Of a DNA stretch of 64,000 nt, positions 3,451 through 51,719 are shown piece after piece (within the stretch, counting starts at the first letter, position 1; every line of letters begins with the position of its first letter). Origin of the DNA: Escherichia coli (GTDB lineage Bacteria > Pseudomonadota > Gammaproteobacteria > Enterobacterales > Enterobacteriaceae); NCBI RefSeq assembly GCF_044324875.1, contig NZ_CP172185.1, one strand, 5' to 3'. A program made the position numbers and the translations under genes. Under the pieces are notes generated by a model. The model was given only the letters and a program-made list of their open reading frames with translations. It did not search any database and was not told the origin of the DNA.

Positions 3451-3459
3451 ATGACGGCA

Positions 3460-3560: not shown

Positions 3561-3589
3561 GACACAGTAGCATCAGTTTTCTCAATGAA

Positions 3590-4493: not shown

Positions 4494-4747
4494 TGCCACT
4501 CCTTTTTCACAGTTCCTTGTGCGCGCTATTCTAACGAGAGAAAAGCAAAATTACGTCAATATTTTCATAGAAATCCGAAGTTATGAGTCATCTCTGAGAT
4601 AACATTGTGATTTGAAACAAAATCAGCAGATAAAAAAGTGTTTAATTCTGTAAATTAAGCCTGCATTATCGCAATTAAAAGGATGACAAATAGCATAAAC
4701 CAATACCCTAATGGCCCAGTAGTTCAGGCCATCAGGCTCATTTATTT

Positions 4748-5140
4748 TTATTTCTGCAAATGAGTGACCCGAACGACGGCCGGCGCGCTTTTCTTATCCA
4801 GACTGCCGCTAATGTTGATCATCTGGTCCGGCTGAACTTCTCGTCCATCAAAGACTGCCGCAGGAATAACAACATTAATTTCACCGCTCTTATCGCGAAA
4901 AACGTAACGGTTCTCTCCTTTGTGAGAAATCAAATTACCGCGTAGTGAAACCGAAGCGCCATCATGCATGGTTTTTGCGAAATCTACGGTCATTTTTTTT
5001 GCATCATCGGTTCCGCGATAGCCATCTTCTATTGCATGAGGCGGCGGTGGCGCTGCATCCTGTTTTAAACCGCCCTGGTCATCTGCCAACGCATAAGGCA
5101 TGACAAGAAAACTTGCTAATACAATGGCCTGAAATTTCAT
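4748..5140 (-). CDS. ydeI: YdeI periplasmic OB-fold (YgiW/BOF family) stress protein, 130 aa
   Basis: 130-aa secreted protein with signal peptide. Confidence 0.85.
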
Positions 5141-5461
5141 ACTGACTCCTTAATTGCGTTTGGTTTGACTTATTAAGTCTGGTTGCTATTTTTATAATTG
5201 ACAAATAAGAATACTGCCAATTGTTATAAGGCATTTAAAATCAGGCAACTAGCTGTCAAATATTAAGAGAATTTAACTCACTAAAGTAAGAAGAAGATTA
5301 AAGAGTCTTAAACATATTTCAGAACAATCAGATTTATAAATTTGAAAATTATTATAACGGAAGGGTATACAAAAAAAGTAATTTTGCTGGCGACTGCGAA
5401 ACGGCATTCGCATTAGCGGTGAAGTTTGCCCCCACCCAGCTGCTGCAATTACTGCTCTAAC

Positions 5462-5500
5462 CAGGCTGGCCTGGCGATATCTCCAGGCCAGCCATTGGTG
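5462..5500. terminator. Hairpin just downstream of dcp
   Basis: Inverted repeat ggctggcctgg / ccaggccagcc directly after the dcp stop. Confidence 0.45.
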
Positions 5501-5504
5501 GTGT

Positions 5505-7550: not shown

Positions 7551-7686
7551 TTTCTTCTCCTGAACGCGAGGTGTTCCATAGCGTAGGCTTACTGATAACG
7601 GAGTGCAATCTTGCAAACCAGTATTACCCGCTCTTAAGCATCACGTGCTATGTTATTGACACACAAAAGCGTTGAGGAACAGTGAG

Positions 7687-8433
7687 ATGATCGTTTTAGT
7701 AACTGGAGCAACGGCAGGTTTTGGTGAATGCATTACTCGTCGTTTTATTCAACAAGGGCATAAAGTTATCGCCACTGGCCGTCGCCAGGAGCGGTTGCAG
7801 GAGTTAAAAGACGAACTGGGAGATAATCTTTATATCGCCCAACTGGACGTTCGCAACCGCGCCGCTATTGAAGAGATGCTGGCATCGCTTCCTGCCGAGT
7901 GGAGCAATATTGATATCCTGGTAAATAATGCCGGCCTGGCGTTGGGCATGGAGCCTGCGCATAAAGCCAGCGTTGAAGACTGGGAAACGATGATTGATAC
8001 CAACAATAAAGGCCTGGTATATATGACGCGCGCCGTCTTACCGGGTATGGTTGAACGTAATCATGGTCATATTATTAACATTGGCTCAACGGCAGGTAGC
8101 TGGCCGTATGCCGGTGGTAACGTTTACGGTGCGACGAAAGCGTTTGTTCGTCAGTTTAGCCTGAATCTGCGTACGGACCTGCATGGTACGGCGGTGCGCG
8201 TCACCGACATCGAACCGGGTCTGGTGGGTGGCACCGAGTTTTCCAATGTCCGCTTTAAAGGCGATGACGGTAAAGCGGAAAAAACCTATCAAAATACCGT
8301 TGCATTGACGCCAGAAGATGTCAGCGAAGCCGTCTGGTGGGTATCAACGCTGCCTGCTCACGTTAATATCAATACCCTGGAAATGATGCCGGTTACCCAA
8401 AGCTATGCCGGACTGAATGTCCACCGTCAGTAA
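7687..8433 (+). CDS. ydfG: YdfG NADP-dependent short-chain dehydrogenase, 248 aa
   Basis: SDR Rossmann motif TGATAGFG near N-terminus; start MIVLVTG. Confidence 0.9.
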   Translation: MIVLVTGATAGFGECITRRFIQQGHKVIATGRRQERLQELKDELGDNLYIAQLDVRNRAAIEEMLASLPAEWSNIDILVNNAGLALGMEPAHKASVEDWETMIDTNNKGLVYMTRAVLPGMVERNHGHIINIGSTAGSWPYAGGNVYGATKAFVRQFSLNLRTDLHGTAVRVTDIEPGLVGGTEFSNVRFKGDDGKAEKTYQNTVALTPEDVSEAVWWVSTLPAHVNINTLEMMPVTQSYAGLNVHRQ

Positions 8434-8521
8434 TTTTTATACCCGGCGTAACTGCCGGGTTATTGCTTGTCACAAAAAAGTGGTAGACTCATGCAGTTAA
8501 CTCACTCACAAGCAAGAACGA

Positions 8522-9208
8522 ATGACCGTCGAAACGCAACTTAATCCCACACAGCCTGTCAATCAGCAGATTTATCGTATTCTTCGTCGCGACATTGTCC
8601 ATTGCCTGATTGCACCAGGCACACCGTTGTCGGAAAAAGAAGTTTCTGTTCGTTTCAATGTGTCACGCCAGCCGGTTCGTGAAGCCTTTATTAAACTGGC
8701 GGAAAACGGCCTGATTCAAATTCGTCCGCAGCGTGGCAGCTACGTCAACAAAATTTCCATGGCCCAGGTGCGCAACGGCAGTTTTATCCGTCAGGCCATT
8801 GAGTGCGCGGTGGCGCGTCGGGCGGCGAGCATGATTACCGAAAGCCAGTGCTACCAACTGGAACAAAATCTTCACCAGCAACGCATTGCCATTGAGCGCA
8901 AGCAACTGGATGATTTTTTTGAACTTGATGACAACTTCCATCAACTCCTGACGCAGATTGCCGACTGTCAACTGGCGTGGGATACCATTGAGAACCTGAA
9001 AGCGACCGTTGATCGCGTGCGCTATATGAGTTTCGACCACGTTTCTCCACCAGAAATGCTGTTACGCCAGCATCTTGAGATTTTCTCTGCCCTGCAAAAA
9101 CGTGATGGCGATGCGGTAGAACGTGCAATGACGCAACATTTGCAGGAAATCAGCGAATCCGTGCGCCAGATCCGCCAGGAAAACAGCGACTGGTTTAGCG
9201 AAGAGTAA
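8522..9208 (+). CDS. ydfH: YdfH (RspR) GntR-family transcriptional regulator, 228 aa
   Basis: N-terminal GntR-type HTH with FadR-like C-terminal domain. Confidence 0.85.
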
Positions 9209-9281
9209 TTCATTTCCTCTCATCCCATTCGGGGTGAGAGTCTCTCCCCCCGCCTTATGGCTCATGCATGCATCAAAAAAG

Positions 9282-9296
9282 ATGTGAGCTTGATCA
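9282..9296 (+). promoter_or_regulatory. Possible FNR half-site pair (TTGATcaaaAACAA) upstream of ydfZ
   Basis: Near-match to TTGAT-N4-ATCAA about 90 bp upstream of the ydfZ start. Confidence 0.3.
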
Positions 9297-9384
9297 AAAA
9301 CAAAAAATATTTCACTCGACAGGAGTATTTATATTGCGCCCGTTACGTGGGCTTCGACTGTAAATCAGAAAGGAGAAAACACCT

Positions 9385-9588
9385 ATGACGACCTACGATC
9401 GTAACCGTAACGCAATCACCACTGGCAGCCGTGTTATGGTTAGCGGCACCGGTCACACTGGCAAGATCCTGTCGATTGATACTGAAGGTCTGACCGCTGA
9501 GCAAATCCGCCGCGGAAAAACCGTAGTTGTTGAAGGTTGTGAAGAGAAACTGGCACCTCTGGACCTGATTCGTCTCGGCATGAACTAA
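9385..9588 (+). CDS. ydfZ: YdfZ small protein, 67 aa
   Basis: 67-aa ORF with strong SD (aggagaaaacacctATG). Confidence 0.85.
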
Positions 9589-9623
9589 GCGTGTGAATGC
9601 CGCCGATGGCGGCATTGCTTTTT

Positions 9624-11084
9624 TTACTTCACGGAATATTTCGCAACGGTCGCTTTCGCACCATGCGCTAATAAAGACAAGTACGCTTCCGTCACTTTTG
9701 CAGTAAACAAGCTATTGTCTGGCAAATCATCACCAAAGATCGCCTTAATCGCCAGCAATGACTGGACGCGCGCTTTCCCTTCGGCACTACTTTGTACAGC
9801 CTTCTGAATAACAGGTAACAGTGGGTCACTGCTTTCTATCGGATTTCCCTGTTCATCAACACCACCGACATAACGCATCCAACCTGCGACGCCCAGCGCC
9901 AGCAGATCGAACTTGCTGTCATGCGCCAGATGCCAGCGAACAGAATCCAACATCCGCTGTGGCAATTTCTGGCTGCCATCCATCGCAATCTGCCAGGTTC
10001 GATGACGTAGCGCCGGGTTGCTATAGCGTTCAATTAATCGGTTAGCGTAATCTTGCAAATCAACGCCCTGCACTTTCAACGTCGGCGCTTGTTCCTGCAA
10101 CATCAAGGCATACGCTGCATGACGATAATGTTCATCTTCCATGCAGTCATTAATGTGCTGATATCCGGCAAGATACCCCAGATACGCCAGGAATGAATGA
10201 CTGCCGTTGAGCATGCGCAACTTCATCTCTTCATAAGGCAGCACATCACTAACCAGTTCGGCTCCCGCTTTTTCCCATTCCGGACGTCCGGCAACAAAGT
10301 TATCTTCTATTACCCACTGGCGGAAAGGTTCACAGGCAACGCCAGCAGGATCGCGCACACCGGTAAGTTGTTCGATTTTCGCCAGCGTATCCTCTGTCAC
10401 TGCGGGCACAATACGGTCCACCATTGTTGATGGGAAAGTCACGTTTACTTCGATCCATTGTGCCAGTTTTACATCAACAGCTTGCGCGTAGGAAGTGACA
10501 ACGTCACGCATAACATGACCGTTTTCTGGCATGTTGTCACATGACATGACGGTAAATGCGGGAAGTCCTGCCGCTTTACGGCGAGCCAGCGCCTCAACAA
10601 TCACCCCTGTTGCAGTTTTCGGCTGGTGGGGATTTTGCACGTCGGCAGCGACCATCGGGTGATCGAGCATTAACTGTCCGGTCGCCGGAGAGTGGAAATA
10701 CCCTTTTTCGGTGATTGTCAGAGAGACAATCGCGATTTGCGGTTCACACATCGCAGCCAACACGGTTTCTAAGCCATCTATCTGTACGTGCAAGGCTTTT
10801 TTAACGACGCCAACGACGCGAGCCGTCCACGCATCGGCCGACATTTCCGCAACGGTATAAAGATTATCTTGCTGTTGTAAATCGGCAATTTGCTGTTCGC
10901 CGCCGATTAAATTGACCTCATAATATCCCCAATCACTGAAATGTTTTGTAGCAAGAATATCGGCATACACGCCCTGATGCGCACGGTGAAATGCGCCAAA
11001 GCCTAAATGAACAATTCTTGGGGCCAAGTTATTACGATCATAAACAGGGAGCGTCGCTTTTGCTGATAACAAATTATTTCCCAT
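9624..11084 (-). CDS. ydfI: YdfI mannitol/mannonate dehydrogenase-family oxidoreductase, 486 aa
   Basis: N-terminal NAD-binding motif [10 protein letters not shown]. Confidence 0.9.
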
Positions 11085-11173
11085 AACAATTCCTTAAATT
11101 TAAATATGGCAAGCTGCATGTTTTGTTATATGAATAAAAAATCCCCTCTCCGGTAAGAGAAGGGATGGAGGAT

Positions 11174-12541
11174 TTACAGACTTCTTGAAGGTTGCGCAGC
11201 TGTTACAACACGCGGTTGATCTTCCGCGGCATCTTCCAGTGCACTTAAATCACGGTCTCTCACTTCTGGCATTTTCAGCGCAGAGATTAAACCAATCACT
11301 GAATATGCCATGATCATAATGGCGATCGGATACCAGGATTCCGTCATGGTGCAGAAAATACCCGCCAGGATAGGACCAAAACCGGAAGCGATAAGACCAC
11401 CAATTTCTTTAGAAATCGCCATCCGGGTAAAGCGGTTTTTACAGCCGAACATTTCTGCCATGGTAATGTTTTCCAGAGCAAATAATCCCAGCACCGCACA
11501 GTTATGAATCACAATCAGTGCAACCATAATGGTGCTCGGGGCATAGCTTTTATCTACGATGATAGAAAGCATTGGCCACGCCAGCACAATCGCAGAGGTA
11601 TTCATAATAATATACGGGATCCGGCGACCTATTTTATCGGATAACCAACCAAGGAACGGAATGGTCATAAAGCCGAGAATCGAACTGATCATCAATGCAT
11701 CTGTTGGAATTGCTTTGTTAAACAATAACGTCTGCACTAAATAGCCTGCAAGGAAAGTCTGAATTAAACCGGAGTTACCAGCCTGACCAAAACGCAGCCC
11801 TGTTGCCAGCCAGAAGGATTTGCTCTGGAACATGCTACCAGCAGGTGCAGGTTTTGCTGTCGGTTGGTTGCTGTCGTTAACCTTCTCAAAGACCGGGCTT
11901 TCTTTCAGATTCATACGCAACCAGATAGCAAAGACCATCACGACAACGCTCGCCAGGAACGGTATACGCCATCCCCACGCAAGCAGTTCCTCTTTACTGA
12001 GAATGAAGAACATAAAGGCCCAGATTGCCGTTGCGCTCAAGGTTCCGCAGTTAGTCCCCATAGCAACAAATGAGGAGATAATTCCGCGCTTACCTTTTGG
12101 TGCATATTCCGCCAGCATCGTGCCGGCACCGGAAATTTCCGCGCCTGCCCCCAGCCCCTGAATAATACGCAGCGTCACCAGCAAAATTGGCGCAAACACA
12201 CCAATTTGTGCATAGGTCGGCAGCACACCAATTAAGGTAGTACAGATCCCCATCATAGTGATGGTAATAAAGAGCACTTTTTTACGCCCGATTCTGTCGC
12301 CCATTTTGCCGAAAATAAATGCTCCGACAATACGCGCCACATAACCTGCACCGTAGGTTCCCATTGCCAGAATTAACGCCATTGCCGTTGATGATTCAGG
12401 AAAAAATATTTCATGAAACACTAACGCTGCGCCGAGCGAATATAACTGGAAATCCATAAATTCAAGCGCAGTGCCCAGCCATCCCGATACTGCTGCTTTC
12501 ACCAAATCCTTAGTGCTTCTTTCGTGTTTTTCTATTGTCAT
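11174..12541 (-). CDS. ydfJ: YdfJ MFS transporter, full-length 455 aa
   Basis: Multi-TM MFS translation, uninterrupted. Confidence 0.85.
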   Translation of the reverse strand: MTIEKHERSTKDLVKAAVSGWLGTALEFMDFQLYSLGAALVFHEIFFPESSTAMALILAMGTYGAGYVARIVGAFIFGKMGDRIGRKKVLFITITMMGICTTLIGVLPTYAQIGVFAPILLVTLRIIQGLGAGAEISGAGTMLAEYAPKGKRGIISSFVAMGTNCGTLSATAIWAFMFFILSKEELLAWGWRIPFLASVVVMVFAIWLRMNLKESPVFEKVNDSNQPTAKPAPAGSMFQSKSFWLATGLRFGQAGNSGLIQTFLAGYLVQTLLFNKAIPTDALMISSILGFMTIPFLGWLSDKIGRRIPYIIMNTSAIVLAWPMLSIIVDKSYAPSTIMVALIVIHNCAVLGLFALENITMAEMFGCKNRFTRMAISKEIGGLIASGFGPILAGIFCTMTESWYPIAIMIMAYSVIGLISALKMPEVRDRDLSALEDAAEDQPRVVTAAQPSRSL

Positions 12542-16447: not shown

Positions 16448-16462
16448 GGTAATGACTCCAAC

Positions 16463-16966
16463 TTATTGATAGTGTTTTATGTTCAGATAATGCCCGATGA
16501 CTTTGTCATGCAGCTCCACCGATTTTGAGAACGACAGCGACTTCCGTCCCAGCCGTGCCAGGTGCTGCCTCAGATTCAGGTTATGCCGCTCAATTCGCTG
16601 CGTATATCGCTTGCTGATTACGTGCAGCTTTCCCTTCAGGCGGGATTCATACAGTGGCCAGCCATCCGTCATCCATATCACCACGTCAAAGGGTGACAGC
16701 AGGCTCATAAGACGCCCCAGCGTCGCCATAGTGCGTTCACCGAATACGTGCGCAACAACCGTCTTCCGGAGCCTGTCATACGCGTAAAACAGCCAGCGCT
16801 GGCGCGATTTAGCCCCGACATAGCCCCACTGTTCGTCCATTTCCGCGCAGACGATGACGTCACTGCCCGGCTGTATGCGCGAGGTTACCGACTGCGGCCT
16901 GAGTTTTTTAAGTGACGTAAAATCGTGTTGAGGCCAACGCCCATAATGCGGGCAGTTGCCCGGCAT
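16463..16966 (-). CDS. insB: IS1 InsB transposase component, 167 aa
   Basis: Translation [26 protein letters not shown]... recognised as IS1 InsB. Confidence 0.93.
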
Positions 16967-17160
16967 CCAACGCCATTCATGGCCATATCAATGATTTTCT
17001 GGTGCGTACCGGGTTGAGAAGCGGTGTAAGTGAACTGCAGTTGCCATGTTTTACGGCAGTGAGAGCAGAGATAGCGCTGATGTCCGGCGGTGCTTTTGCC
17101 GTTACGCACCACCCCGTCAGTAGCTGAACAGGAGGGACAGCTGATAGAAACAGAAGCCAC
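16885..17160 (-). CDS. insA: IS1 InsA, 91 aa
   Basis: Translation [30 protein letters not shown]...; overlaps insB in the -1 frame. Confidence 0.93.
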
Positions 17161-17225
17161 TGGAGCACCTCAAAAACACCATCATACACTAAATCAGTAA
17201 GTTGGCAGCATCACCCACAATAGCA

Positions 17226-31431: not shown

Positions 31432-31449
31432 AAAAATAAATATCCTCCG

Positions 31450-32160
31450 GCATAGCCGGAGGTTTTTCAAATGCGCCTATAAGGCTCTCTTACCAGCCGC
31501 GCCCTAACAGGCGCACACGATCTGACATTTGCATCCAACTTCGTTACTTACGGCCCGTAAACGGGCTGCCCGGATAGGGAATCGATAACTGCTCTCCCAT
31601 TTTATCCTCTTCAAGCTGGTGCTTTATGTAATCCTGTATCTTCGCCGTGTTCTTACCCACCGTATCGACGTAATACCCTCTGCACCAGAACTCCCTGTTC
31701 CTGTATTTGAATTTCAAATCACCAAACTGCTCGTAAAGCATCAGACTGCTTTTCCCTTTCAGATATCCCATAAAGCCTGATACGCTCATTTTGGGCGGGA
31801 TCTCCACAAGCATATGGATATGATCTGCACAGCATTCAGCTTCCAGAATCCGTACACTTTTCCACTCACACAGCTTTCTCAAAATACAGCCTATTGCTCT
31901 ACGCTTCTCTCTGTAGAACACCTGTCTTCGGTATTTTGGCGCAAATACTATGTGATATTTACAGTTCCATCGGGTGTGCGCTAAGCTCTTTTCGTTCCCC
32001 ATTGGGACCCCCTTTTGATTTCTTGTTTGACACTTGCAGTTGCCAGACCGCAAGGTGTTTTAACAAATCAAAAGGGGTTTTAATAACTGGCTCAAAGCTG
32101 AAAGCTTTCCGGAACCCCCAGCCTAGCTGGGGGTTTTCTGTGCACAATAAGTCCGGACTG
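31450..32160 (-). mobile_element. IS200-like element (IS200/IS605 family), about 0.7 kb; ends approximate
   Basis: Contains Y1 (HuH) transposase gene; upstream of its ATG is a stem-loop that includes the SD, and further upstream a perfect palindrome ggaacccccagcctagctgggggtt at ~32103-32128; no terminal inverted repeats expected for this family. Confidence 0.7.
31544..32002 (-). CDS. tnpA: IS200-family TnpA Y1 transposase, 152 aa
   Basis: Translation MGNEKSLAHTRWNCKYHIVFAPKYRRQVFY... with HuH motif (ADHIHMLVEIPP) and catalytic Tyr region. Confidence 0.9.
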   Translation of the reverse strand: MGNEKSLAHTRWNCKYHIVFAPKYRRQVFYREKRRAIGCILRKLCEWKSVRILEAECCADHIHMLVEIPPKMSVSGFMGYLKGKSSLMLYEQFGDLKFKYRNREFWCRGYYVDTVGKNTAKIQDYIKHQLEEDKMGEQLSIPYPGSPFTGRK

Positions 32161-35103: not shown

Positions 35104-35240
35104 ATGGCAAAGCCGATCATCACGCTCAATGGCCTAAAAATCGTCATTATGTTGGGAATGCTGGTCATTATTCTCTGCGGTATCCGTTTTGCCGCCGAGA
35201 TCATCGTGCCGTTTATTCTCGCATTATTTATTGCTGTTAT
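35104..35240 (+). pseudogene. tqsA: tqsA (AI-2 exporter) 5' fragment, first ~45 codons, truncated by element insertion
   Basis: ATG at 35104 encodes [45 protein letters not shown], then the frame runs into AT-rich foreign sequence and stops within ~25 bp; the rest of the gene resumes at 50814. Confidence 0.88.
35232..35240. repeat. Left attachment-site core (attL), 9-bp TGCTGTTAT
   Basis: Same 9-mer recurs at 50813-50821, where the tqsA reading frame resumes. Confidence 0.7.
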
Positions 35241-35316
35241 ATATAACTTATTTCACTTAACACATTGATTTAATTAAATAATTTACACTACAAAAAGTGC
35301 CAAAAATCGCAAATTA

Positions 35317-35369
35317 ACTACACCATTAACTACACCGTTCGGCGCACTGTATGAAACAACGTGGAACAA
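35317..35369 (+). repeat. Left-arm repeat cluster: 2x ACTACACC (12-bp spacing) then GAAACAACGTGGAACAA
   Basis: ACTACACC at 35317-35324 and 35329-35336; 17-mer at 35353-35369 recurs inverted at 49334-49350. Confidence 0.6.
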
Positions 35370-35559
35370 ATAGGCACAAGAAATATAAAGGCGGGTAATT
35401 TTTAGGGGGCGTTAATGTCGATATGGGGATCCACATATCGAGATTGATACCTGGCTTTTTTTCCGGTTAACCTTTAATCAGGCTGGTGGGCTTTACCTGT
35501 TCTGTAGGAGTGGTCATTATGACCATTCAGCCAATGACCTTAATCAGAATTTTTCGCTA

Positions 35560-35590
35560 AAAAATGACGTTGGCCACGTCATCCGGAAAG
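35560..35590 (-). terminator. Probable terminator at the end of the packaging operon
   Basis: Palindrome atgacgttggccacgtcat followed by a T6 run on the minus strand. Confidence 0.45.
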
Positions 35591-35652
35591 CACAAAATCA
35601 CGTCGATTTTTAATGGATGGTTAAACCGTCTTTATCTCGATGTCCGTACGTA

Positions 35653-35943
35653 TTACGTACGCAGTCGTTCCGGCTTCTTCCAGTGGTACGTATTTTTCGC
35701 GCTCTCCCTCCGTTGTTGAGAACGGCGACGGTATGCCAGCAACTCAAGGACTCTTGTTCGTATGTTGCGCATATCCACGCCGTTAAGCTCAATACCATCA
35801 CGGCGCATCACCTCCGCAACAACACGCACATAATTTTCGGCGGTCACGCTGTCCGGCTGCGTGGCCTGTTCGTCATGCTGCTGGCTGATTCCGGTAACGC
35901 GGCGGATTAATCCCAGTAGTTCGGCTTCGCTCATTCTCGTCAT
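35653..35943 (-). CDS. Hypothetical protein (96 aa), start overlaps terL stop (ATGA)
   Basis: ORF start overlaps the terL stop; no recognisable motif. Confidence 0.4.
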   Translation of the reverse strand: MTRMSEAELLGLIRRVTGISQQHDEQATQPDSVTAENYVRVVAEVMRRDGIELNGVDMRNIRTRVLELLAYRRRSQQRRESAKNTYHWKKPERLRT

Positions 35944-37601
35944 ACCCCATCAAACGCCGCAAGCCGCTCTTTGTGGCTGTCGCTCATATCGAATGCAAAT
36001 TCCTCATGCTCTGCCTGGAATGTGCCAAACGCCATCAGCGCCGCAACGCTCGGGTCTATCTTGTTGGATGATTTTTTCTTGTTCGGCTTGATATTGGCGT
36101 TCGCGTCACTCTGCATCACAACATTACTCATTGACCAGGCCAGCACCGGATCACCACGATGCACAATCACCTTCCGGTTAACAAAAACTTCGAACGATTT
36201 CGCCGCCGGACTGAAACGAAGGTATGTTTGCGGGAACGGCTCCACCTCAAATCCCGCCCCCTGTAGCTGTGTTCTCAGGTGAGTGGCGTTCCATGTATCG
36301 AAGCCCACCAGCCTGATACTGAAATTCTCTGCATCCGCCATGATGTCATCACGGATACGGTCATAATCAATGCAGTCACCCGGTGTTGTGCGTATCCAGC
36401 CAGCCTTTACCCACTGGCGATAGATGGCGCGGTTTTTATTGGCGGGGTTCTGTAGCTGAAATTCCGGCAGATAGTGACGGGAAACCAGCATAATTTTTTT
36501 ACCGACCGGGAAGGCATAGCACACGCTGGAAATATCGCTGGTTGATGATAAGTCCAGCCCCGCGTAGCACTCCTGCCCGTATAAATCCGCCTCCGCGAAC
36601 GTTCCGGCGCACTCCGCCCATGCACCGTTACCCATCCACGGCGTAGCCCCCTGACACCAGATATTGAATCGCTTGGTGAGCATTTCCACCCACTGCGACG
36701 GAATACCCCGCGCTTTCTGGATGGTTGAGGCCAGTTTTTCACGATCGACGGAAACATCGATATTGGGATTCGCCTTTATCCACATCGCCGGATCGTCAAC
36801 CTCGCTTTCATCATCCAGCTCGTAAATCAGCACGAACATGGATTCGTTCACCTCTTCACCATCCAGTATCTGGCAGCAATAGTCATAGTGTTGTTTACAG
36901 GCTGAAACAACGTTGCTCCCCGATGTGGTGATGGCAAATAACAGCCCCTCCGGACGCGCCCCCATTCCCAGCTCAAGCGCGGAATAAACCCCGTTGTCAG
37001 GGTGCAGGTGATATTCATCCACAATGGCAAGACTCGGGTTTGTACCTTCAATGGTTGCCGCTTTTGCTGCCAGTGGCTTTAACAGGCTGTTGGTTTTCGC
37101 GTGTATCACCTTGTGTGCCTGAATATTTACCCGCTTTCGTAACGGTCGGGATAAAAGGCACATCTGACGCGCATCATCAAACACGATCCGCGCCTGATCA
37201 CGACTCACGGCGGCGGTGTAAATATCCTGCTGCCCGTTTTCCATAACCAGAAACCAGTTAGCCAGGATAGCGGCGACCGTGGATTTGGCATTTTTTCGCG
37301 GTACTTCAATGAATGCGCTGGTGTATTTGCGCCGTCCGGTGGCCTTAACCTTAAAGCCCAGGATGCACGCAAAGGCGAACTGCTGCCACGGCTCCAGCTC
37401 AATGGGGCTACCGCGCATTGCGCCTTTTACGTGCGGACACACCCTGGAAAAGGCAATAAACCGCTCCACGACCTCCGGATCGAACGTGTAAAGGGGGTTT
37501 TCAAGGTCAGAAAAATACCGTTTAACAGCCTGTTTCAGTCGTTTACAGGCCGTAATTTTGCCGTTTTTTACGCCTTCTGCGTACTCATGCCAGGCGGTCA
37601 A
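35940..37601 (-). CDS. terL: Terminase large subunit, 553 aa
   Basis: ATPase P-loop-like VPRKNAKST and Walker B-like LAIVDEYH, C-terminal nuclease-like region; overlaps terS 3' end. Confidence 0.85.
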   Translation of the reverse strand: MTAWHEYAEGVKNGKITACKRLKQAVKRYFSDLENPLYTFDPEVVERFIAFSRVCPHVKGAMRGSPIELEPWQQFAFACILGFKVKATGRRKYTSAFIEVPRKNAKSTVAAILANWFLVMENGQQDIYTAAVSRDQARIVFDDARQMCLLSRPLRKRVNIQAHKVIHAKTNSLLKPLAAKAATIEGTNPSLAIVDEYHLHPDNGVYSALELGMGARPEGLLFAITTSGSNVVSACKQHYDYCCQILDGEEVNESMFVLIYELDDESEVDDPAMWIKANPNIDVSVDREKLASTIQKARGIPSQWVEMLTKRFNIWCQGATPWMGNGAWAECAGTFAEADLYGQECYAGLDLSSTSDISSVCYAFPVGKKIMLVSRHYLPEFQLQNPANKNRAIYRQWVKAGWIRTTPGDCIDYDRIRDDIMADAENFSIRLVGFDTWNATHLRTQLQGAGFEVEPFPQTYLRFSPAAKSFEVFVNRKVIVHRGDPVLAWSMSNVVMQSDANANIKPNKKKSSNKIDPSVAALMAFGTFQAEHEEFAFDMSDSHKERLAAFDGV

Positions 37602-37941
37602 GCTCGTCCTCTTCCTCTGTTTCCGGTGGATTTCTGCGGCGGCTTACCGGGTCAAAACCCAGCAAAGAAGCCATTTTGATCATTATTCTTTCCGCGTCAG
37701 CCTTTGCGCTCAGGGCGGGGTTTCTGCTCTCGCTGCCCTGACTGTTAACAATGCTGAACCCGCGCGTGGCAAGGTCTTCGACGGCTTTGCGGTATATGGA
37801 GTAGTTAACGCAATACAGCTCCAGATTGCTCCAGTCGGCGGGAGTAAGGTCTTCCCGTCCGGAAAGCTGGCGCGATTTTTCCTTCCACTGCCTGACCGCG
37901 ATTTCATCCAGGTAAGCGGGGGCTTTTGGTGGTCTTGCCAT
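37585..37941 (-). CDS. terS: Terminase small subunit (P27-type), ~118 aa
   Basis: Translation MARPPKAPAYLDEIAVRQWKEKSRQL...; overlaps terL start by 17 nt. Confidence 0.7.
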   Translation of the reverse strand: MARPPKAPAYLDEIAVRQWKEKSRQLSGREDLTPADWSNLELYCVNYSIYRKAVEDLATRGFSIVNSQGSESRNPALSAKADAERIMIKMASLLGFDPVSRRRNPPETEEEDELDRLA

Positions 37942-38004
37942 GTTCTTTTTTCGCCCAATTATTTTCAAAAAAATTCCCGTGCACAAAAATTTGAGCAGGC
38001 GGTC

Positions 38005-38060
38005 GGTTCTGGGCGGGGTCGGGTTCGTCCTGAAAACTCCCCCCCACCCCGTCCGGCTGC
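38005..38060. other. Candidate cos/packaging-initiation region (GC-rich, lambda-cosN-like)
   Basis: gggcggggtcgggttcgtcc and ctcccccccaccccgtccggc between the HNH module and terS; resembles the lambda cohesive end GGGCGGCGACCT. Confidence 0.35.
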
Positions 38061-38064
38061 CTCA

Positions 38065-38247
38065 TCAGCGATTGCGGAAACATTCCATAACCTCGCGGTC
38101 ACGGTCGTTTAATCGCGTCGCTGTGATGCGTTCTGCGCGTCCTGATGCTTTATCTTTATGCCCTGTTTCCTGTGCCTTCCATGCGTCACGCTGCCTTATC
38201 AGTCCACGAATAAGGCTGTTTTGTTCCCGTTCATTCATCAGCGTCAT
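38065..38247 (-). CDS. Possible small hypothetical protein (60 aa) between HNH and terS
   Basis: Internal ATG of the 38065..38481 ORF, starting just before the HNH stop. Confidence 0.3.
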   Translation of the reverse strand: MTLMNEREQNSLIRGLIRQRDAWKAQETGHKDKASGRAERITATRLNDRDREVMECFRNR

Positions 38248-38671
38248 ACATCCAGTTATTGCGGTTGGCTGCCCGTTCTTCCTCCTCACGGAATCCGCCA
38301 ACTGCACGCTTGTTTTTTGTGGCCGGATCAAGCCATTTCGTTTTCTGGTTATGACACGCCTGACACAATGGCTGATGATTCCACTCAGGCCAGAAGAGAA
38401 CATCATTACCGCCATCGATGGGGATAATGTGATCCACCACCACGGCGGGCGTGTATATTCCTTTTTCCAGGCAATGCGCACATAACGGGTTTTTACTCAG
38501 GTACATAGCGCGGTATTTCTCCCACTGCCTCGTATACCCTCGCTCCCTGCTGCTGCCTCTCCGGCTGTCCTGCTGCTGGCGTGCGCTGCGTCTGTGCTCC
38601 TCACACTTGCCGGACTTCACGCGCCTGTTGCAGCCTGGTTGTGTGCATCGTCTCAATGGTTGCCACGGCAT
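38231..38671 (-). CDS. HNH endonuclease (terminase-associated), 146 aa
   Basis: Zn-finger/HNH motifs CTQPGCN...CEEH, CAHC, VDHIIPIDGGND, NHQPLCQACHNQK. Confidence 0.85.
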   Translation of the reverse strand: MPWQPLRRCTQPGCNRRVKSGKCEEHRRSARQQQDSRRGSSRERGYTRQWEKYRAMYLSKNPLCAHCLEKGIYTPAVVVDHIIPIDGGNDVLFWPEWNHQPLCQACHNQKTKWLDPATKNKRAVGGFREEEERAANRNNWMYDADE

Positions 38672-38967
38672 CAGTACACCCCCACATCACGATAAACCGA
38701 CCAGAGCGCGGAAATCGTCAGGGGAATTTCTTTTGTATCGGTATCGCCAAGCGTTGTCCGGTACTCGTACAGTTGCGAGATGTACATCAGGCAACCAATT
38801 TTTATTGCAGGGGTAAATTCCAGGCCGTCATCAAAACGCCTGCCAATATGCTTCTGGCATACCTCCAGCGCCGCGCTTATGTATGCCTGAATCAGTGTGT
38901 CTTCTGTGTTACCATCTATGCGGCAGTGAAGTTTGGCCTCTTCCAGGGTTATTTTTTCTGCTGTCAT
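38671..38967 (-). CDS. gp6-like head-tail connector protein, 98 aa
   Basis: N-terminal LEEAKLHCRID...DTLIQAYISAALE signature. Confidence 0.65.
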   Translation of the reverse strand: MTAEKITLEEAKLHCRIDGNTEDTLIQAYISAALEVCQKHIGRRFDDGLEFTPAIKIGCLMYISQLYEYRTTLGDTDTKEIPLTISALWSVYRDVGVY

Positions 38968-39302
38968 TTTTCTGTACCCACCTTTGCCAGAATTTCCAGC
39001 CGGGTTCTTTTCGCATCAGGTAAGGGGATCCCGATGATATTAAGCGTGCTCCCGGCAAAAGCGCCGGTAAGCACTTTCAGGCGACTGGCGGCGGATATGT
39101 CGCCACGATAGCGAACCCATACCCGAATCGTTGCAGGTGCGGTTTCTGCGCCTGCGGTCAGTAATTCCCGTCCGCTGATCCCCTTGACCTCTGCCCAGAT
39201 GGTTTCCCCTTCCGTCCATATCTGCTGGATCGCACCTGACGGCAGGCGCTGTGTGGTAAATGTCATAATCGTCACCCGGTCCCGCATCTTTCCGGCTATC
39301 AT
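38964..39302 (-). CDS. Head-tail joining / head closure protein, 112 aa
   Basis: Size, position next to portal, and the typical RDRVTI...WAEVKGISGRE pattern. Confidence 0.6.
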   Translation of the reverse strand: MIAGKMRDRVTIMTFTTQRLPSGAIQQIWTEGETIWAEVKGISGRELLTAGAETAPATIRVWVRYRGDISAASRLKVLTGAFAGSTLNIIGIPLPDAKRTRLEILAKVGTEK

Positions 39303-40516
39303 TCGTCACCGCCCTTACTGTTCTTGCTGATTGTCACTTCCTGCTTCCATGCCTGGCTGAACTCGTCGCCACCTTCACGCGGCGGCATTCCCTCACGCTC
39401 ACGGGCTTCGTTCGGATTGATGATCCCGTTCTTAATCCCTTTCTCATACGTGGCGTAACGTTCGGTAGGGGTGGCGCGTAATAAATCGGCTGAATCAAAC
39501 TCAACCAGATAACGGGTACCAGGTACGGGAGAAGCCACCAGCAAAGCAGCCTTGATTTGCTGTTCGAAGTTCGCCAGCCACGGGCGCATTGTCATGGTCA
39601 GAAACGCGCGGCTTGCCTCACTGAAATTGCTGTAGGTGCTGTTGCTGTATTCCTGCAAAAAAATCGGCGAGACGTTGAACATTCGGGCGATGTCTTCAAT
39701 GGTAAAGCGACGGGAGGCCAGCCATTCAGCATCCTGATTACTCATGCCCAGCTGCTGATAGCTCATACCCCCTTCAAGGATGGGCGTTTTTCCGGCGTTT
39801 CTGGCCCCTTTGTAGCGTTCCAGTGCGGCTAATGCCTGTTTGCCCTTCACGCCGTCCAGCCATTCGCCTGACGTGATAACCCCTGCCGCCATCATGCCAT
39901 CACGCATCACGCTCGCGCCGTGGCGTTGTTGGGCCAGCCCAAGCCCCAGCGATTCGCGGCAGATGGTTACAGGTGAGCGCCCCATAAAGCCGTCATCCGT
40001 GGAGTAACGAAGGTGGAGAACCTCCCACGGTAAATAGTTGCGGGTGTTTCCGGTGTAGGCGTCAGTGATGCAGTAGCGCCAGTTATGCTCACCTGTCTGC
40101 TCCACGTTCACCGACTGCGGCGGGTAAGGATGTAAAGCCACCGGAAAACCATCACGCCCCCACTGAATAACCGCATAAGCATTACCGTTTAACAGGCAGT
40201 GGCGGATCATCATTCGCTTAAACTGGTAGGGGGTTTGCCATGCGTTCGGGCGCTCGTTGAGGATGTGATCGACCGGATGAGAATCAAGCCACTCGCGGGC
40301 CTCCTTCCCCTTCTCATTGCGTACCAGGTACAGGTAACACGGCATGGTAGCCACCGCCTCAGAGATGACCGTCACGGCGTTCATGACGGCGGGCAGTGAT
40401 TCCGCTGTCCCCGATGATACGTACTCACCCGCCCCCGTGTTCGATGTGCCCGCCAGCGCCATAAATTCATCAAGCGTCATGCTGCGCTGCTCTTTTTTTC
40501 TTCTGAAAAGCCACAT
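39299..40516 (-). CDS. Portal protein (HK97-type), 405 aa
   Basis: Length and position between protease and connector genes; HK97-portal-like translation. Confidence 0.8.
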   Translation of the reverse strand: MWLFRRKKEQRSMTLDEFMALAGTSNTGAGEYVSSGTAESLPAVMNAVTVISEAVATMPCYLYLVRNEKGKEAREWLDSHPVDHILNERPNAWQTPYQFKRMMIRHCLLNGNAYAVIQWGRDGFPVALHPYPPQSVNVEQTGEHNWRYCITDAYTGNTRNYLPWEVLHLRYSTDDGFMGRSPVTICRESLGLGLAQQRHGASVMRDGMMAAGVITSGEWLDGVKGKQALAALERYKGARNAGKTPILEGGMSYQQLGMSNQDAEWLASRRFTIEDIARMFNVSPIFLQEYSNSTYSNFSEASRAFLTMTMRPWLANFEQQIKAALLVASPVPGTRYLVEFDSADLLRATPTERYATYEKGIKNGIINPNEAREREGMPPREGGDEFSQAWKQEVTISKNSKGGDE

Positions 40517-40517
40517 A

Positions 40518-41090
40518 TCACACCCCCGCTAAATCCACCCACCAGCGGCGATTATCCGCACGCGGCATTTTTTCGGGGTGCTGCTCATACAGGGAACGGC
40601 GGGCCAGCTCCACGCCAGAATCGGGGTAAGCCGGTACCGATGTAACGGTAATTTCGTACAGTTCCGCCACCAGCACGGTACGAACGCATGGATCTGTTGT
40701 GGTATCCCATACATCCTTACGGGAGCGAAAGCCAAAGCTCATGCCGGATATATCACCGCGTTTAACCAGTTCGATAACGTCGCGCCCTGTACTGGTATCC
40801 GGTGGGGTCAGTTCAAAGCGTAACCCTGTTTCGTCCTCTTCCAGTTTCAGCGTGCCGGAACGGGTGCGCCCCAGTAACATGCTGTGGTCATGCTCATACA
40901 GGCCGCGAACGTCATTACCCGCCGCAAGCCATTCAGTAAACGCCCCCCGCTGGAATTTTTCGTAAAACTCACCCCATAACAGTTCTGAAAGCTTATCCCA
41001 GCGAACAACGTAGCCCGTCAGCGTACCGGCTCCGCTCGTGGTGATTTCCGATGACCGGATTTCCATACTCTTCATAATTTTTTCACCCAT
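40518..41090 (-). CDS. Prohead protease (HK97 family), 190 aa
   Basis: Translation resembles HK97-type prohead protease; lies between capsid and portal. Confidence 0.75.
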   Translation of the reverse strand: MGEKIMKSMEIRSSEITTSGAGTLTGYVVRWDKLSELLWGEFYEKFQRGAFTEWLAAGNDVRGLYEHDHSMLLGRTRSGTLKLEEDETGLRFELTPPDTSTGRDVIELVKRGDISGMSFGFRSRKDVWDTTTDPCVRTVLVAELYEITVTSVPAYPDSGVELARRSLYEQHPEKMPRADNRRWWVDLAGV

Positions 41091-41129
41091 AAAACACTAA
41101 AGGGGCTTTTAAGCCCCTTCTGTATGCTG

Positions 41130-49033: not shown

Positions 49034-49316
49034 TATTGCCCCCTTTCGTTTCTTAAAGAGTTATTTCGTGTTCTATTGCGTTGGTATGTGTCTGATTGTG
49101 TCAGGGTGATTCAGAGTTGGCAAATGTTGGTGGCGGGTATTTTACAGAAACGGGGTAATTTTAATAAAAAACATTTTAATTCAGTATTATGCAAAGGCAT
49201 AAAATCTCGTTTTATGCCTTTTTTCTCACTATTTAAAGCGTTATTCGCTAATGTATAAAAAACCAGTTGAGCATTAAAAATCAGCAACTTATAAGTCTGT
49301 ATACTTTTTCGCCTCT

Positions 49317-49359
49317 TGTTCGTGGTTGTTCCACGTTGTTTCACATTGTTCGCCGTTGT
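49317..49359 (-). repeat. Phased GAACAA-type repeats between int and alpA, inverted relative to the other copies
   Basis: Minus strand reads CAACGGCGAACAATGTGAAACAACGTGGAACAACCACGAACAA; contains both 17-mers found at 35353-35369 and 42512-42528. Confidence 0.6.
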
Positions 49360-49407
49360 ATCTGTGTGCTTATCCAGTATGCGCATACTGAAAAAACACG
49401 AAAAAAA

Positions 49408-50637
49408 TTATTTTCTTCTGGCTACTGGTAGCGTGGTTACGTTTTCATGTGCTCCCGCCAGTATCTCCAACCGCTCCACCCACATATCCAGCGCATTGCG
49501 TTTCGCATCCAGATAACGGGAATGATTATAAACTCGCTGCATTCCTGGCATCTGGTGGCCTGTAAGCTGCTCCACGACATGCGGATCAACGCCTAAATCG
49601 TTCAGCATGGTTGTAAAGGTGCGCCGGATGTCATGCAGTGACCAGTGAGGGTGTTTAAGCCTCCTGTGCGCTAATCTTCCATACTGCGATACGCTGGCCT
49701 CCTGTTTCACTTCCCCCAGCAATAAGCCCGTGTGCCTGTTCTGCTCCACCAGCTGCGTGACGAACGGCAGTATCGCTTCCGGTATGGGCCGGAATATGGC
49801 TACCTTCGTTTTGCTGTGCTCCTTCGGAACGGTCCATAGCATTTCGGTAAAATCCCACTCCCCGATCTCCGATAGCCTCAGTTCTACTGTCCTGGCTCCG
49901 AAGACAATCAGGAGGCGGATTAGTGCGACGTAGTAAGGGGAAAATATTTTTTTATCCAGCGCCTGCAATAACTCGCCCAGTTCTTTGGTGCTTAAGACAC
50001 GTTCGCTTATATCCGGTTTTTTCCCAACGTCCGCCACGTTCAGATCGTCCAGAACGTTGCTGATTGCATAGCGCCGCCTACGGCAAAACTTAAGCGCCTG
50101 TTTGCACGCCTGTAGCACGAATCCGGCAGTAACAGGCGTTCGCTTTGCCACCTGGTCAAAACAGGCCAGCCAGTGCCGTAGCTCGCATTTATCCAGCGGC
50201 ATAGCACCAATGTGCTGTATTACGTGATTATTAACTCGCCTTTTCAGGGCGATATAATCCACGCGGTTTTCCTTTACGTAAGACTCAAGCCAGTAGGTGA
50301 GCGCATCGCCAACCGTTACCGGCTTTAACGCTTCCTGTACGGCGTAATTCATCTCATGGCGTGGATTTTTCCCCTCCGCCAGCCATGCGCGACACTGGGC
50401 GGCTTTTTCCCTGGCTGCTTTCAGGCTCAGATCAGGATAATTTCCCAGCTTAATACGTTCCGGTCGTGTCTCTCTTCCCGTTCCTGCCCTGTAAGTGAAA
50501 TACCAGGTTAATATCCCTGATGTTAAATATTTCACGCTCAGATTTCCGCCATCGCTATAAAACGTGTTTTTCTCCGCTGGCTTACCATGAAGTTTCCTTA
50601 GCAAGGTATCGCTCAGTTTGTTCATTGCTCTGCTCAC
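49408..50637 (-). CDS. int: Tyrosine integrase (P4-like family), ~405-409 aa
   Basis: C-terminal catalytic region HDIRRTF ... RVYNHSRY; adjacent to the att junction. Confidence 0.88.
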   Translation of the reverse strand: MSRAMNKLSDTLLRKLHGKPAEKNTFYSDGGNLSVKYLTSGILTWYFTYRAGTGRETRPERIKLGNYPDLSLKAAREKAAQCRAWLAEGKNPRHEMNYAVQEALKPVTVGDALTYWLESYVKENRVDYIALKRRVNNHVIQHIGAMPLDKCELRHWLACFDQVAKRTPVTAGFVLQACKQALKFCRRRRYAISNVLDDLNVADVGKKPDISERVLSTKELGELLQALDKKIFSPYYVALIRLLIVFGARTVELRLSEIGEWDFTEMLWTVPKEHSKTKVAIFRPIPEAILPFVTQLVEQNRHTGLLLGEVKQEASVSQYGRLAHRRLKHPHWSLHDIRRTFTTMLNDLGVDPHVVEQLTGHQMPGMQRVYNHSRYLDAKRNALDMWVERLEILAGAHENVTTLPVARRK

Positions 50638-50664
50638 GCTTTACCCCTTGTTTACGAAAAAGTG

Positions 50665-50728
50665 ACTACACCAGTGACTACACCGATCGTTGCACAAAGG
50701 GCTACAACGTGAAACAAGCTGGAACAAG
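50665..50728 (+). repeat. Right-arm repeat cluster: 2x ACTACACC (12-bp spacing) then GTGAAACAAGCTGGAACAAG
   Basis: ACTACACC at 50665-50672 and 50677-50684; GAAACAA/GGAACAA repeats at 50709-50728; same layout as the left arm. Confidence 0.6.
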
Positions 50729-50812
50729 AAAAATCACAAATTTGTTTATAATCAAAAACATAATGAACAAACTGAAACATTATGAAACGGCAAAAAACAC
50801 TAATTGATAAAA

Positions 50813-50821
50813 TGCTGTTAT
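50813..50821. repeat. Right attachment-site core (attR), 9-bp TGCTGTTAT
   Basis: Direct repeat of 35232-35240; tqsA frame resumes here. Confidence 0.7.
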
Positions 50822-51719
50822 TCTTAACCCGCTGGTGCAACACATGGTCCGCTGGCGTGTGCCGCGTGTACTGGCAGTGTCGATTTTGATGACCATCATC
50901 GTGATGGCGATGGTGTTGCTATTAGCTTATCTGGGTTCCGCGCTCAACGAGTTGACGCGGACGTTACCGCAATATCGCAACTCTATTATGACGCCGCTGC
51001 AAGCGATTGAACCGTTGTTGCAACGCGTAGGGATTGATGTCTCAGTTGACCAACTGGCGCATTACATTGATCCGAACGCGGCGATGACGTTGCTCACCAA
51101 CTTATTGACGCAGTTATCTAATGCCATGTCATCAATATTTTTATTGCTGCTGACGGTGCTGTTTATGCTGCTCGAAGTGCCACAATTGCCCGGAAAATTT
51201 CAGCAAATGATGGCGCGTCCGGTTGAAGGGATGGCGGCGATTCAGCGTGCGATTGACAGTGTTTCTCATTATCTGGTGCTGAAAACAGCCATCAGCATCA
51301 TCACCGGCCTGGTCGCCTGGGCGATGCTCGCCGCACTCGATGTTCGCTTCGCTTTTGTCTGGGGATTGCTGGCCTTTGCGCTTAATTACATCCCGAATAT
51401 TGGTTCAGTTCTCGCGGCAATCCCCCCTATCGCTCAGGTATTGGTGTTTAATGGCTTCTACGAAGCGTTGCTGGTGCTGGCGGGATATCTGCTGATTAAT
51501 CTGGTCTTCGGCAATATTCTGGAGCCACGCATCATGGGGCGTGGGCTGGGGCTTTCCACGTTGGTGGTATTTCTGTCGTTGATTTTTTGGGGATGGTTGT
51601 TAGGACCGGTGGGTATGCTGCTTTCCGTGCCGTTGACAATTATTGTCAAAATTGCGCTTGAACAAACAGCGGGAGGTCAAAGCATCGCCGTTCTGTTAAG
51701 CGATCTCAATAAAGAGTGA
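50814..51719 (+). pseudogene. tqsA: tqsA 3' fragment (codons ~44 to end); no in-frame ATG upstream of the junction
   Basis: Frame continues ...[22 protein letters not shown]... to stop at 51719; in-frame stop TAA at 50808-50810 inside the element; only internal GTG/ATG starts available. Confidence 0.85.

Follow-up and report, generated by a model that had tools for sequence, protein, structure and literature searches.

An island that is very probably a capsid-forming PICI interrupts the AI-2 exporter gene tqsA of Escherichia coli

In the window analyzed here, the whole 64,000-nucleotide stretch of the E. coli contig NZ_CP172185.1, the gene for the AI-2 exporter TqsA is split by a 15.6 kb insert (35241-50812), which raises the questions of what this insert is, how it entered the gene, and whether the strain can still produce TqsA. 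The tqsA frame starts with the ATG at 35104, passes through a 9-bp core, TGCTGTTAT, and enters foreign codons, for an ORF of 54 aa in total; beyond the insert, the gene continues in frame from GCT (Ala44) at 50814. The core is present at both junctions; by chance, 9 nt would overlap at a fixed junction with a probability of 4^-9, or about 4e-6. The features of the split gene are the following:

35104-35268, plus strand: tqsA 5' fragment, with 46 native codons (to 35241) followed by 8 island-encoded codons and a TAA stop
35232-35240, plus strand: attL copy of the core TGCTGTTAT
50813-50821, plus strand: attR copy of the core TGCTGTTAT
50814-51719, plus strand: tqsA 3' fragment, codons 44-344, with TGA and TAA in frame upstream (50805-50810)

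When 35104-35240 and 50822-51719 are joined via a single core copy, the resulting 1035 nt encode an intact TqsA of 344 aa that matches the TqsA of PDB entry 7nb6 over residues 1-344 (E=1.8e-208), and the 277 nt reconstructed around the junction show 100% identity to the uninterrupted tqsA of E. coli strain 2012C-4221. The initial annotation of this locus had described a split of tqsA by an island, with the 9-bp core at both junctions and the frame running from 35104 to the junction and resuming at 50814; we recovered the same coordinates, and the one-copy join restores the gene. In island-free strains, the sequence at this position is just as predicted, and the 5170 of 5426 complete E. coli genomes with an empty tqsA site have the two halves directly joined. 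A further copy of TGCTGTTAT, at 57554, is unrelated.

Junctions identical to those in the window were detected in 244 (attL) and 246 (attR) complete E. coli genomes, that is, in about 245 genomes (4.5%). The occupants differ: at least three distinct islands lie at the identical position in tqsA, namely, the window island, an island in RM10042 that is 89% similar to it over the structural genes, and an island in Ch1 that is 11.6 kb long, the size of a classical PICI, and has another packaging module. For a tally of cf-PICIs (capsid-forming PICIs) at this site, we used a 2-kb junction query; islands located between phoQ and roxA also pass the 80% coverage cut, and only those listed matches were used in which TerL lies beside the tqsA stub, an arrangement found in at least 59 genomes among the matches listed. 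Beyond E. coli, searches of the GTDB species-representative genomes with the island end plus core and with a degenerate attR pattern gave no matches. The proposal, also made in the initial annotation, that the island integrated site-specifically at an intragenic attB is borne out by the exact restoration of the gene with one core copy, the adjoining tyrosine integrase, the arm-type repeats described below, and the different islands at one position.

The insert contains the following features:

35653-35943, minus strand: conserved hypothetical protein at the end of the packaging operon (phrog_1561)
35940-37601, minus strand: terminase large subunit, TerL (phrog_9, E=3.5e-180)
37585-37941, minus strand: terminase small subunit, TerS, P27 family (PHROG match and annotation of relatives)
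38231-38671, minus strand: HNH endonuclease, packaging accessory (PHROG match)
38671-38967, minus strand: head-tail adaptor Ad1 (PHROG match)
38964-39302, minus strand: head closure protein Hc1 (PHROG match)
39299-40516, minus strand: portal protein (PHROG match)
40518-41090, minus strand: HK97-family prohead protease (PHROG match)
41130-42287, minus strand: HK97-fold major capsid protein (PHROG match; 98% identity with its counterpart in the O157:H7 island, L003)
42603-43076, plus strand: accessory ORF (157 aa) located in a low-GC patch, without family match, present also in island L001
43406-43687, minus strand: PerC-family transcriptional activator (family match and annotation of relatives)
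43698-44108, minus strand: single-stranded DNA-binding protein, SSB (family match)
44662-44875, no strand: iteron field with at least 9 copies of TCCCCAC-containing repeats in both orientations, presumed replication origin
44873-46279, minus strand: RepA-family helicase/primase-replicase (phrog_2850, phrog_906)
47247-47904, minus strand: P1 immI-like block, consisting of the next four features
47247-47420, minus strand: second Icd-like gene
47472-47559, minus strand: C4 antisense RNA
47627-47676, minus strand: a1/b1 target
47707-47904, minus strand: Icd-like gene
48089-48268, plus strand: YlcI/YnfO family protein
48845-49033, minus strand: AlpA-type regulator/excisionase (phrog_2790, phrog_66)
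49408-50637, minus strand: tyrosine integrase with Arm-DNA-bind_3 and Phage_integrase domains, adjoining attR

With this gene content, the insert is very probably a complete cf-PICI, a phage satellite, integrated in codons 44-46 of tqsA by its own tyrosine integrase through recombination between attP and attB. Under the SatelliteFinder definition of cf-PICIs (PMC10085698), the integrase, the AlpA regulator, and the primase-replicase module are all present, and eight capsid and packaging components (major capsid, protease, portal, adaptor, connector/closure, HNH, TerS, and TerL) show strong PHROG matches in intact ORFs, which makes 11 of the 11 core components intact. Among the 20 island proteins that were compared with PHROGs, none matched the "forbidden" tail or holin/lysis families, and RefSeq likewise lists no tail or lysis genes for three sister islands. 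The iteron field adjoins the replicase gene at its 3' side and, by analogy with the PICI layout (PMC6092414), is the presumed origin. When the accessory ORFs were screened for defence cargo with PADLOC, the outcome was a single weak match (E=0.004) to a defence-system model, which we treated as not significant.

The EcCIEDL933-type cf-PICIs share with the window island the order of the core functions (int, alpA, replicase and origin, PerC, SSB, major capsid, protease, portal, head closure, adaptor, HNH, TerS, TerL) as well as the size of about 15.5 kb and the absence of any tail or lysis match. The island of O157:H7 (L003) is presumably EcCIEDL933, the one that has been mobilised experimentally. 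It occupies the phoQ-roxA spacer, where the shared block is AAATATGTCC, whereas the window island resides in tqsA, and the similarity between the two is uneven, with high identities for the capsid (98%), protease (98%), portal (95%), and TerL (92%) but low ones for the replicase (63%), adaptor (68%), and head closure protein (55%); furthermore, the C4 RNA/Icd-like segment (47282-47702) is extra in the window island. The structural and replication genes of the window island are 97% identical to those of a phoQ-roxA island, and its ends and integrase match those of islands found in tqsA; no complete E. coli genome carries this island at more than 97% identity over its full length. Judging from these comparisons, the window island is a new mosaic. 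Named relatives in the phage collection showed only distant, partial matches, which cover no more than 13% of the island at 73-79% identity. The production of own small capsids combined with hijacked helper-phage tails has been shown experimentally for EcCIEDL933 only (bioRxiv 10.1101/2025.02.11.637232).

Given that all structural genes are phage-like, the insert could alternatively be a decayed HK97-like prophage devoid of tail and lysis genes, rather than an autonomous satellite, in which case the split of tqsA would be a fixed scar. The attP junction, searched as an exact 29-mer, had no match in IMG/VR viral contigs or JGI metagenome contigs, and no helper phage was identified within the window, which would fit such a relic, although an excised form may well exist and yet be missing from these collections. 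We nevertheless consider decay quite improbable: the gene order and content equal those of the O157:H7 phoQ-roxA island, down to the near-identity of the capsid and protease, every one of the 14 genes in the comparison has an intact ORF with no stop, and the length of 15.6 kb together with the int-alpA-rep-ori layout is typical of PICIs. Moreover, this layout is seen again in hundreds of genomes, with exchange of modules, and therefore points to an evolving mobile family rather than to random decay.

What, then, is left of TqsA in a strain that carries this cf-PICI? The protein is cut after residue 46, within helix H2, and the island supplies no substitute N-terminus. In the TqsA structure, the pentamer is held together by H1, an oblique helix (residues 7-29) that provides its main contact in the cytoplasm; H2 is a horizontal helix (residues 31-57) (PMC9475539). 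The stop reported in the initial annotation in frame before the 3' fragment, TAA at 50808-50810, is indeed there and is immediately preceded by an in-frame TGA (50805-50807); with two in-frame stops upstream of the 3' piece, loss of TqsA function in this strain is therefore likely. The earliest in-frame starts in that piece are GTG at 50835 (Val51) and ATG at 50844 (Met54), neither of which is preceded by a convincing Shine-Dalgarno sequence. A crude consensus scan near attR revealed no promoter able to drive the 3' fragment, and a terminator and promoter scan at attL, for read-through from tqsA, found nothing. A truncated protein that starts from Val51 or Met54 may be an alternative product and would lack H1 and most of H2. 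The suggestion in the initial annotation that the strain is left with no functional TqsA or with an N-terminally truncated form is thus reasonable with respect to the loss, all the more so as RefSeq annotates both pieces in sister strains as pseudogenes ("pheromone autoinducer 2 transporter, missing C-terminus" for the 5' piece and "tqsA, missing N-terminus" for the 3' piece); however, the missing part comprises H1 and most of H2, not ordinary transmembrane segments as was suggested.

Excision would give back the exact tqsA gene, and one could accordingly see the split as a reversible switch ("regulated gene integrity"), whereby regulated excision restores tqsA and controls AI-2 export. As befits that concept, the TqsA protein domain is disrupted and is not restored by the element, and several distinct islands occupy the site; tqsA is among the regulated-gene-integrity candidates in the TIGER survey (PMC7192596), and packaged tail-less cf-PICI capsids have been reported even without a helper, implying spontaneous induction (bioRxiv 10.1101/2025.02.11.637232). 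Still, a switch appears very unlikely. Induction of a PICI by AlpA leads to runaway replication that is harmful to the cell (PMC6092414), and excising cells are therefore unlikely to gain from the restored tqsA; a close sister island occupies an intergenic site, so that gene disruption is not conserved in the lineage; and there is no evidence of quorum-sensing-linked regulation.

The manner of integration can be examined through the ends of the island, where two pairs of repeats flank the att sites:

35313-35336, plus strand: tandem 12-nt repeat ATTAACTACACC, two copies, presumed arm-type integrase binding sites of the P arm
50661-50684, plus strand: tandem 12-nt repeat AGTGACTACACC, two copies, presumed arm-type sites of the P' arm

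We infer that the integrase binds these repeats, and the motif ACTACACC is found also in islands L001-L004. The repeats of the P arm are of the phoQ-roxA type and those of the P' arm are of the tqsA type, a mixture that might alter the excision efficiency of the window island. Between the two types, the attP sequences are the same through GATAAAAT, then differ in 7 of 7 bases, and then converge; the block shared by the phoQ-roxA islands, AAATATGTCC, is 10 bp long, and their left-end sequences differ from those of the tqsA type. Insertion by a transposase-type mechanism, with the 9-bp repeat as a target-site duplication rather than a recombination core, is extremely unlikely: a 9-bp direct duplication around an insert is a signature of many transposons too, and an IS1 elsewhere in the window has a short flanking duplication, but we rejected this possibility because the island ends lack terminal inverted repeats (local alignment score below the shuffle mean), and it is further contradicted by the absence of a transposase among the island proteins, which instead include a tyrosine integrase and AlpA, with arm-type repeats at the ends, by the presence of different islands at the identical position in about 245 genomes, and by the phoQ-roxA sisters, whose other left ends and 10-bp block indicate attP/attB identity rather than a fixed-length duplication.

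The site-specific system of the window island resembles those of the lambda/HK022 type, which likewise combine an N-terminal arm-binding domain with a C-terminal catalytic domain, a short core common to attP and attB, and arm motifs on both sides; a further shared trait is that close relatives with integrases about 90% identical use other cores. It differs from them in that the integrase belongs to a P4/PICI-like group with Arm-DNA-bind_3, and the arm sites, overlap length, and need for excisionase or host factors are putative assignments here. The window integrase shares 97% identity with its counterpart from the tqsA island of RM10042 and about 90% overall with the phoQ-roxA type; its N-terminal half is of the tqsA type, and in the catalytic domain (residues 241-409), only 3 of 169 positions differ from the phoQ-roxA type. 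Eight residues between positions 99 and 314 discriminate the integrases of the two types. One scenario, which we regard as rather doubtful, is that these two sister integrases direct near-identical satellites to one site or the other, the lineage having acquired a different target on the chromosome chiefly through a swap of the 7-bp overlap along with changes in a few residues of the arm- and core-binding domains, in which case the tqsA knockout, reversible on excision, in about 4.5% of E. coli would be a side effect.

For the cf-PICI as a whole, the following sequence of events can be proposed. The island integrase would recombine attP with the chromosomal attB, leaving one copy of TGCTGTTAT at each junction, with strand exchange most likely occurring in a 7-bp overlap within the core (TGCTGTT or GCTGTTA) and with the integrase apparently positioned by the tandem arm-type sites (ACTACACC) that lie some 80-130 bp inward from either end of the island. 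By analogy with the family, AlpA, turned on by a helper phage or spontaneously, would trigger excision; the excised island would replicate from the iteron origin via the RepA-type replicase; and its DNA would be packaged into its own small HK97-type capsids by its own TerS, TerL, and HNH proteins, such that phage tails would be all that the island requires to spread.

Insertions in tqsA have been recorded before. The gene appears in the list of genes disrupted by integration of Bobay et al. 2013 (PMC3603311), and TIGER (Mageeney et al. 2020) records E. coli tqsA elements of 11, 15, and 16 kb (PMC7192596). These elements (Eco282.16.tqsA, Eco557.15.tqsA, and Eco33.11.tqsA) disrupt the same host gene, and their sizes match those of the cf-PICI (about 15.5 kb) and the classical PICI (11.6 kb) seen at this site, but neither survey classed its elements as satellites. 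The tqsA target, the cf-PICI family, and gene disruption by integration are all already published. The split noticed in the initial annotation is real; the island, left unnamed there, is identified here as a cf-PICI phage satellite, and the site that it occupies was already in the literature.

The finding means that this strain almost certainly lacks the AI-2 exporter TqsA and that AI-2 signalling and biofilm behaviour could shift. The strain would also carry a mobile satellite that, by analogy with its relatives, depends on phage tails alone for its spread. More generally, with about 245 occupied sites among 5426 complete E. coli genomes, tqsA is a clean, well-populated case of a disruptive intragenic attB, and the related att site between phoQ and roxA can be used for the study of integrase retargeting.

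The tqsA gene, which encodes the AI-2 exporter, is split in the window by a 15,572-bp insert (35241-50812), with the 9-mer TGCTGTTAT present at both junctions (35232-35240 and 50813-50821; a third copy at 57554 is unrelated to either). The 5' piece starts at 35104 and encodes 46 native residues through the core, followed by 8 foreign codons (YNLFHLTH) and a stop, which yields an ORF of 54 aa (35104-35268); the 3' piece resumes with codon 44 (GCT at 50814), and its frame is open to the stop at 51719. Thus, the repeated 9-mer and the split reading frame described in the initial annotation are found exactly where they were placed. Deletion of 35241-50821 produces an ORF of 1035 nt, and the reconstructed 344-aa protein matches the solved TqsA structure (7nb6) over the full length (E=1.8e-208).

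The proposed integration at an attB site inside tqsA is also upheld by comparison with other genomes. Reconstructed over 277 nt, the joined sequence has 100% identity with the intact tqsA of the island-free strain E. coli 2012C-4221, and the two halves are contiguous in 5170 of the 5426 complete E. coli genomes, where the query matched in one piece over at least 80% of its length. The left junction of the window (attL, tqsA 5' end and island left end) is unbroken in 244 complete E. coli genomes and the right junction (attR, island right end and tqsA 3' end) in 246; about 4.5% of the complete genomes are therefore interrupted at the same nucleotide, and empty sites together with junction carriers account for nearly all of the 5426. 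A 9-nt overlap would arise by chance at a fixed junction with a probability of ~4e-6. A transposon-type target duplication is ruled out because terminal inverted repeats are lacking at the island ends and there is no transposase. Neither attR nor an island end joined to the core was found in the GTDB species-representative genomes, and the excised attP junction was not found in IMG/VR or the JGI metagenomes.

At least three distinct elements occupy this site: the window island, the RM10042 island, which is 89% identical to it over the structural genes, and the Ch1 island of 11.6 kb, which has a capsid and decoration-protein module and lacks terminase and portal. In RefSeq, both tqsA pieces are annotated as pseudogenes in RM10042 and Ch1. 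Disruption of tqsA is already known: the gene is among the conserved E. coli genes listed as disrupted by prophage integration (PMC3603311), and the supplementary tables of the TIGER survey include tqsA elements from E. coli with sizes of 16, 15 and 11 kb (PMC7192596), the sizes encountered here.

The genes of the island lie almost all on the minus strand, and 14 of the 14 compared are intact ORFs. Its features are as follows:

42603-43076 (+), 157-aa ORF located between the capsid gene and perC, on the opposite strand and within a patch of low GC (42-45%)
44662-44875, dense field of at least 9 TCCCCAC-containing iterons in both orientations, directly downstream of the replicase gene
44873-46279, RepA-family helicase/primase
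47247-47904, minus strand, P1 immI-like module: two Icd-like genes around a C4 antisense RNA and the a1/b1 target
47247-47420, Icd-like gene of this module
47472-47559, C4 antisense RNA (72 bits against a gathering score of 45)
47627-47676, a1/b1 target
47707-47904, second, upstream Icd-like gene
48845-49033, AlpA-type regulator/excisionase
49408-50637, tyrosine integrase (Pfam Arm-DNA-bind_3 and Phage_integrase domains)
Elsewhere in the island, SSB and PerC genes, and a complete set of head and packaging genes: major capsid, prohead protease, portal, head closure, head-tail adaptor, HNH, TerS and TerL

The iteron field is presumed to be the replication origin because a PICI origin would be expected there, downstream of the replicase. 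The 157-aa ORF, for which PHROG, PADLOC and NCBIfam gave no match and which occurs also in the closest related island (L001), is possibly accessory cargo; segment 47282-47702 is missing from L001. No tail or lysis family was matched among the island proteins scanned, no defence system significantly among the accessory ORFs, and no close relative of the island was found in the phage collection.

The gene order is the same as in the O157:H7 island between phoQ and roxA, which is presumably EcCIEDL933, the island studied experimentally. The identity of the island, which the initial annotation did not give, follows from its composition: phage-inducible chromosomal islands that form capsids (cf-PICIs) are defined by 11 core components and the absence of 'forbidden' ones (PMC10085698), and the window island has the full set of 11 and, among the proteins scanned, none of the latter. 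Such islands build small T=4 capsids of their own, package no DNA but their own and require nothing but phage tails to be transferred (bioRxiv 10.1101/2025.02.11.637232); in E. coli PICIs, the activator that helper phages switch on is AlpA, and excision and transfer require the integrase (PMC6092414). Compared with the O157:H7 and RM10042 islands, the capsid, protease and portal show 95-100% identity, whereas the head-tail adaptor and head closure (38671-39302) show only 68% and 55%, a divergence that may stem from compatibility with another set of phage tails.

The insertion likely causes loss of TqsA function, as the initial annotation anticipated. The in-frame TAA noted there ahead of the 3' fragment is correct and is in fact the second of two stops (TGA 50805-50807, TAA 50808-50810). 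The earliest in-frame starts past attR are GTG 50835 (Val51) and ATG 50844 (Met54), neither with a convincing ribosome-binding site, and no outward-facing consensus promoter was found near attR. An island ORF (50520-50807, +), a 60-aa hypothetical protein in RefSeq relatives, shares the frame of the 3' fragment; it stops in tandem (TGA TAA) one codon ahead of the core, so that no fusion protein is possible. In the cryo-EM structure, the pentamer's main cytoplasmic contact is made by H1 (Thr7-Phe29) of all five protomers, and H2 (Ala31-Trp57) is a horizontal, membrane-embedded helix (PMC9475539). With the split after Ile46, the remaining protein is cut off from H1 and the initial 16 residues of H2, and a product begun at Val51 or Met54 would lack the same elements, which makes loss of function likely. 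No polar effect is expected, given that the downstream gene, pntB, is convergent.

Several other features of the window were observed. An IS1 copy (~16453-17220) lies between speG and ynfC with CACAATAG on both flanks, and an IS200-like element (~31440-32146) sits between ynfM and asr, with its transposase encoded on the minus strand and an Rfam STnc490 hit at 32012-32135; both are missing from strain RM10042. Region 1-12445, with an Rfam STnc560 match at 3378-3591, matches genomes in which dcp, ydfI and ydfJ are annotated as ordinary genes; it has no counterpart to the Qin-type prophage genes upstream of rspB in RM10042 and thus appears to be without that prophage.

The window island is a mosaic, with structural and replication genes close to those of a phoQ-roxA island and with ends and an integrase matching islands in tqsA. 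Region 35660-47281 is 97% identical to the LH50-c island, located at phoQ-roxA, and the Ch1 island in tqsA, a classical-type PICI, shares 95-99% identity with both ends and the integrase region. The exact island is present in no complete E. coli genome (best match, 93% coverage at 96.5% identity). The integrase of the window island shares 97% identity with the RM10042 integrase (tqsA site) and 90% with the LH50-c one (phoQ-roxA site), from which it differs at only 3 of the last 169 residues. A comparison of five integrases yields 25 positions out of 409 that tell the tqsA type apart from the phoQ-roxA type, and 17 of these fall within residues 1-57.

The integrase and attR region (window 49408-50821) was compared with L001 (16434-17845) and the O157:H7 island. 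With the shared core in capitals, attB reads ...cattatttatTGCTGTTATtcttaaccc... and the putative attP ...attgataaaaTGCTGTTATatataactt.... Tandem 12-nt repeats containing ACTACACC, a motif conserved in all four related islands examined, lie ~80-130 bp inside each island end (35313-35336 and 50661-50684) and would be the arm-type integrase sites; the two arms differ in type, with ATTAACTACACC (phoQ-roxA type) in the P-arm repeats and AGTGACTACACC (tqsA type) in those of the P' arm. In the phoQ-roxA sister islands, the block AAATATGTCC is common to island and target. The two attP types are the same up to GATAAAAT, differ past it at 7 of 7 positions (GCTGTTA vs ATGTCCT) and are then alike again (TnTATnAC). 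The register over which attP fully agrees with attB in both systems spans 7 bp (TGCTGTT or TATGTCC) and is our best guess for the strand-exchange overlap.

Since the attP sites match at no position of a 7-bp block but resemble each other on either side of it, it is conceivable, if rather improbable, that the sister integrases (~90% identical) and their att sites were retargeted between tqsA and phoQ-roxA by an overlap swap. The split of tqsA by an island is confirmed and was already known, and cf-PICIs are a described, abundant family (PMC10085698; bioRxiv 10.1101/2025.02.11.637232); the initial annotation, which did not mention the earlier literature on the tqsA site, thus correctly read a situation that was known before. 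Mild novelty lies only in the sister integrases with their att sites, and the retargeting that they suggest would be of moderate interest if true.
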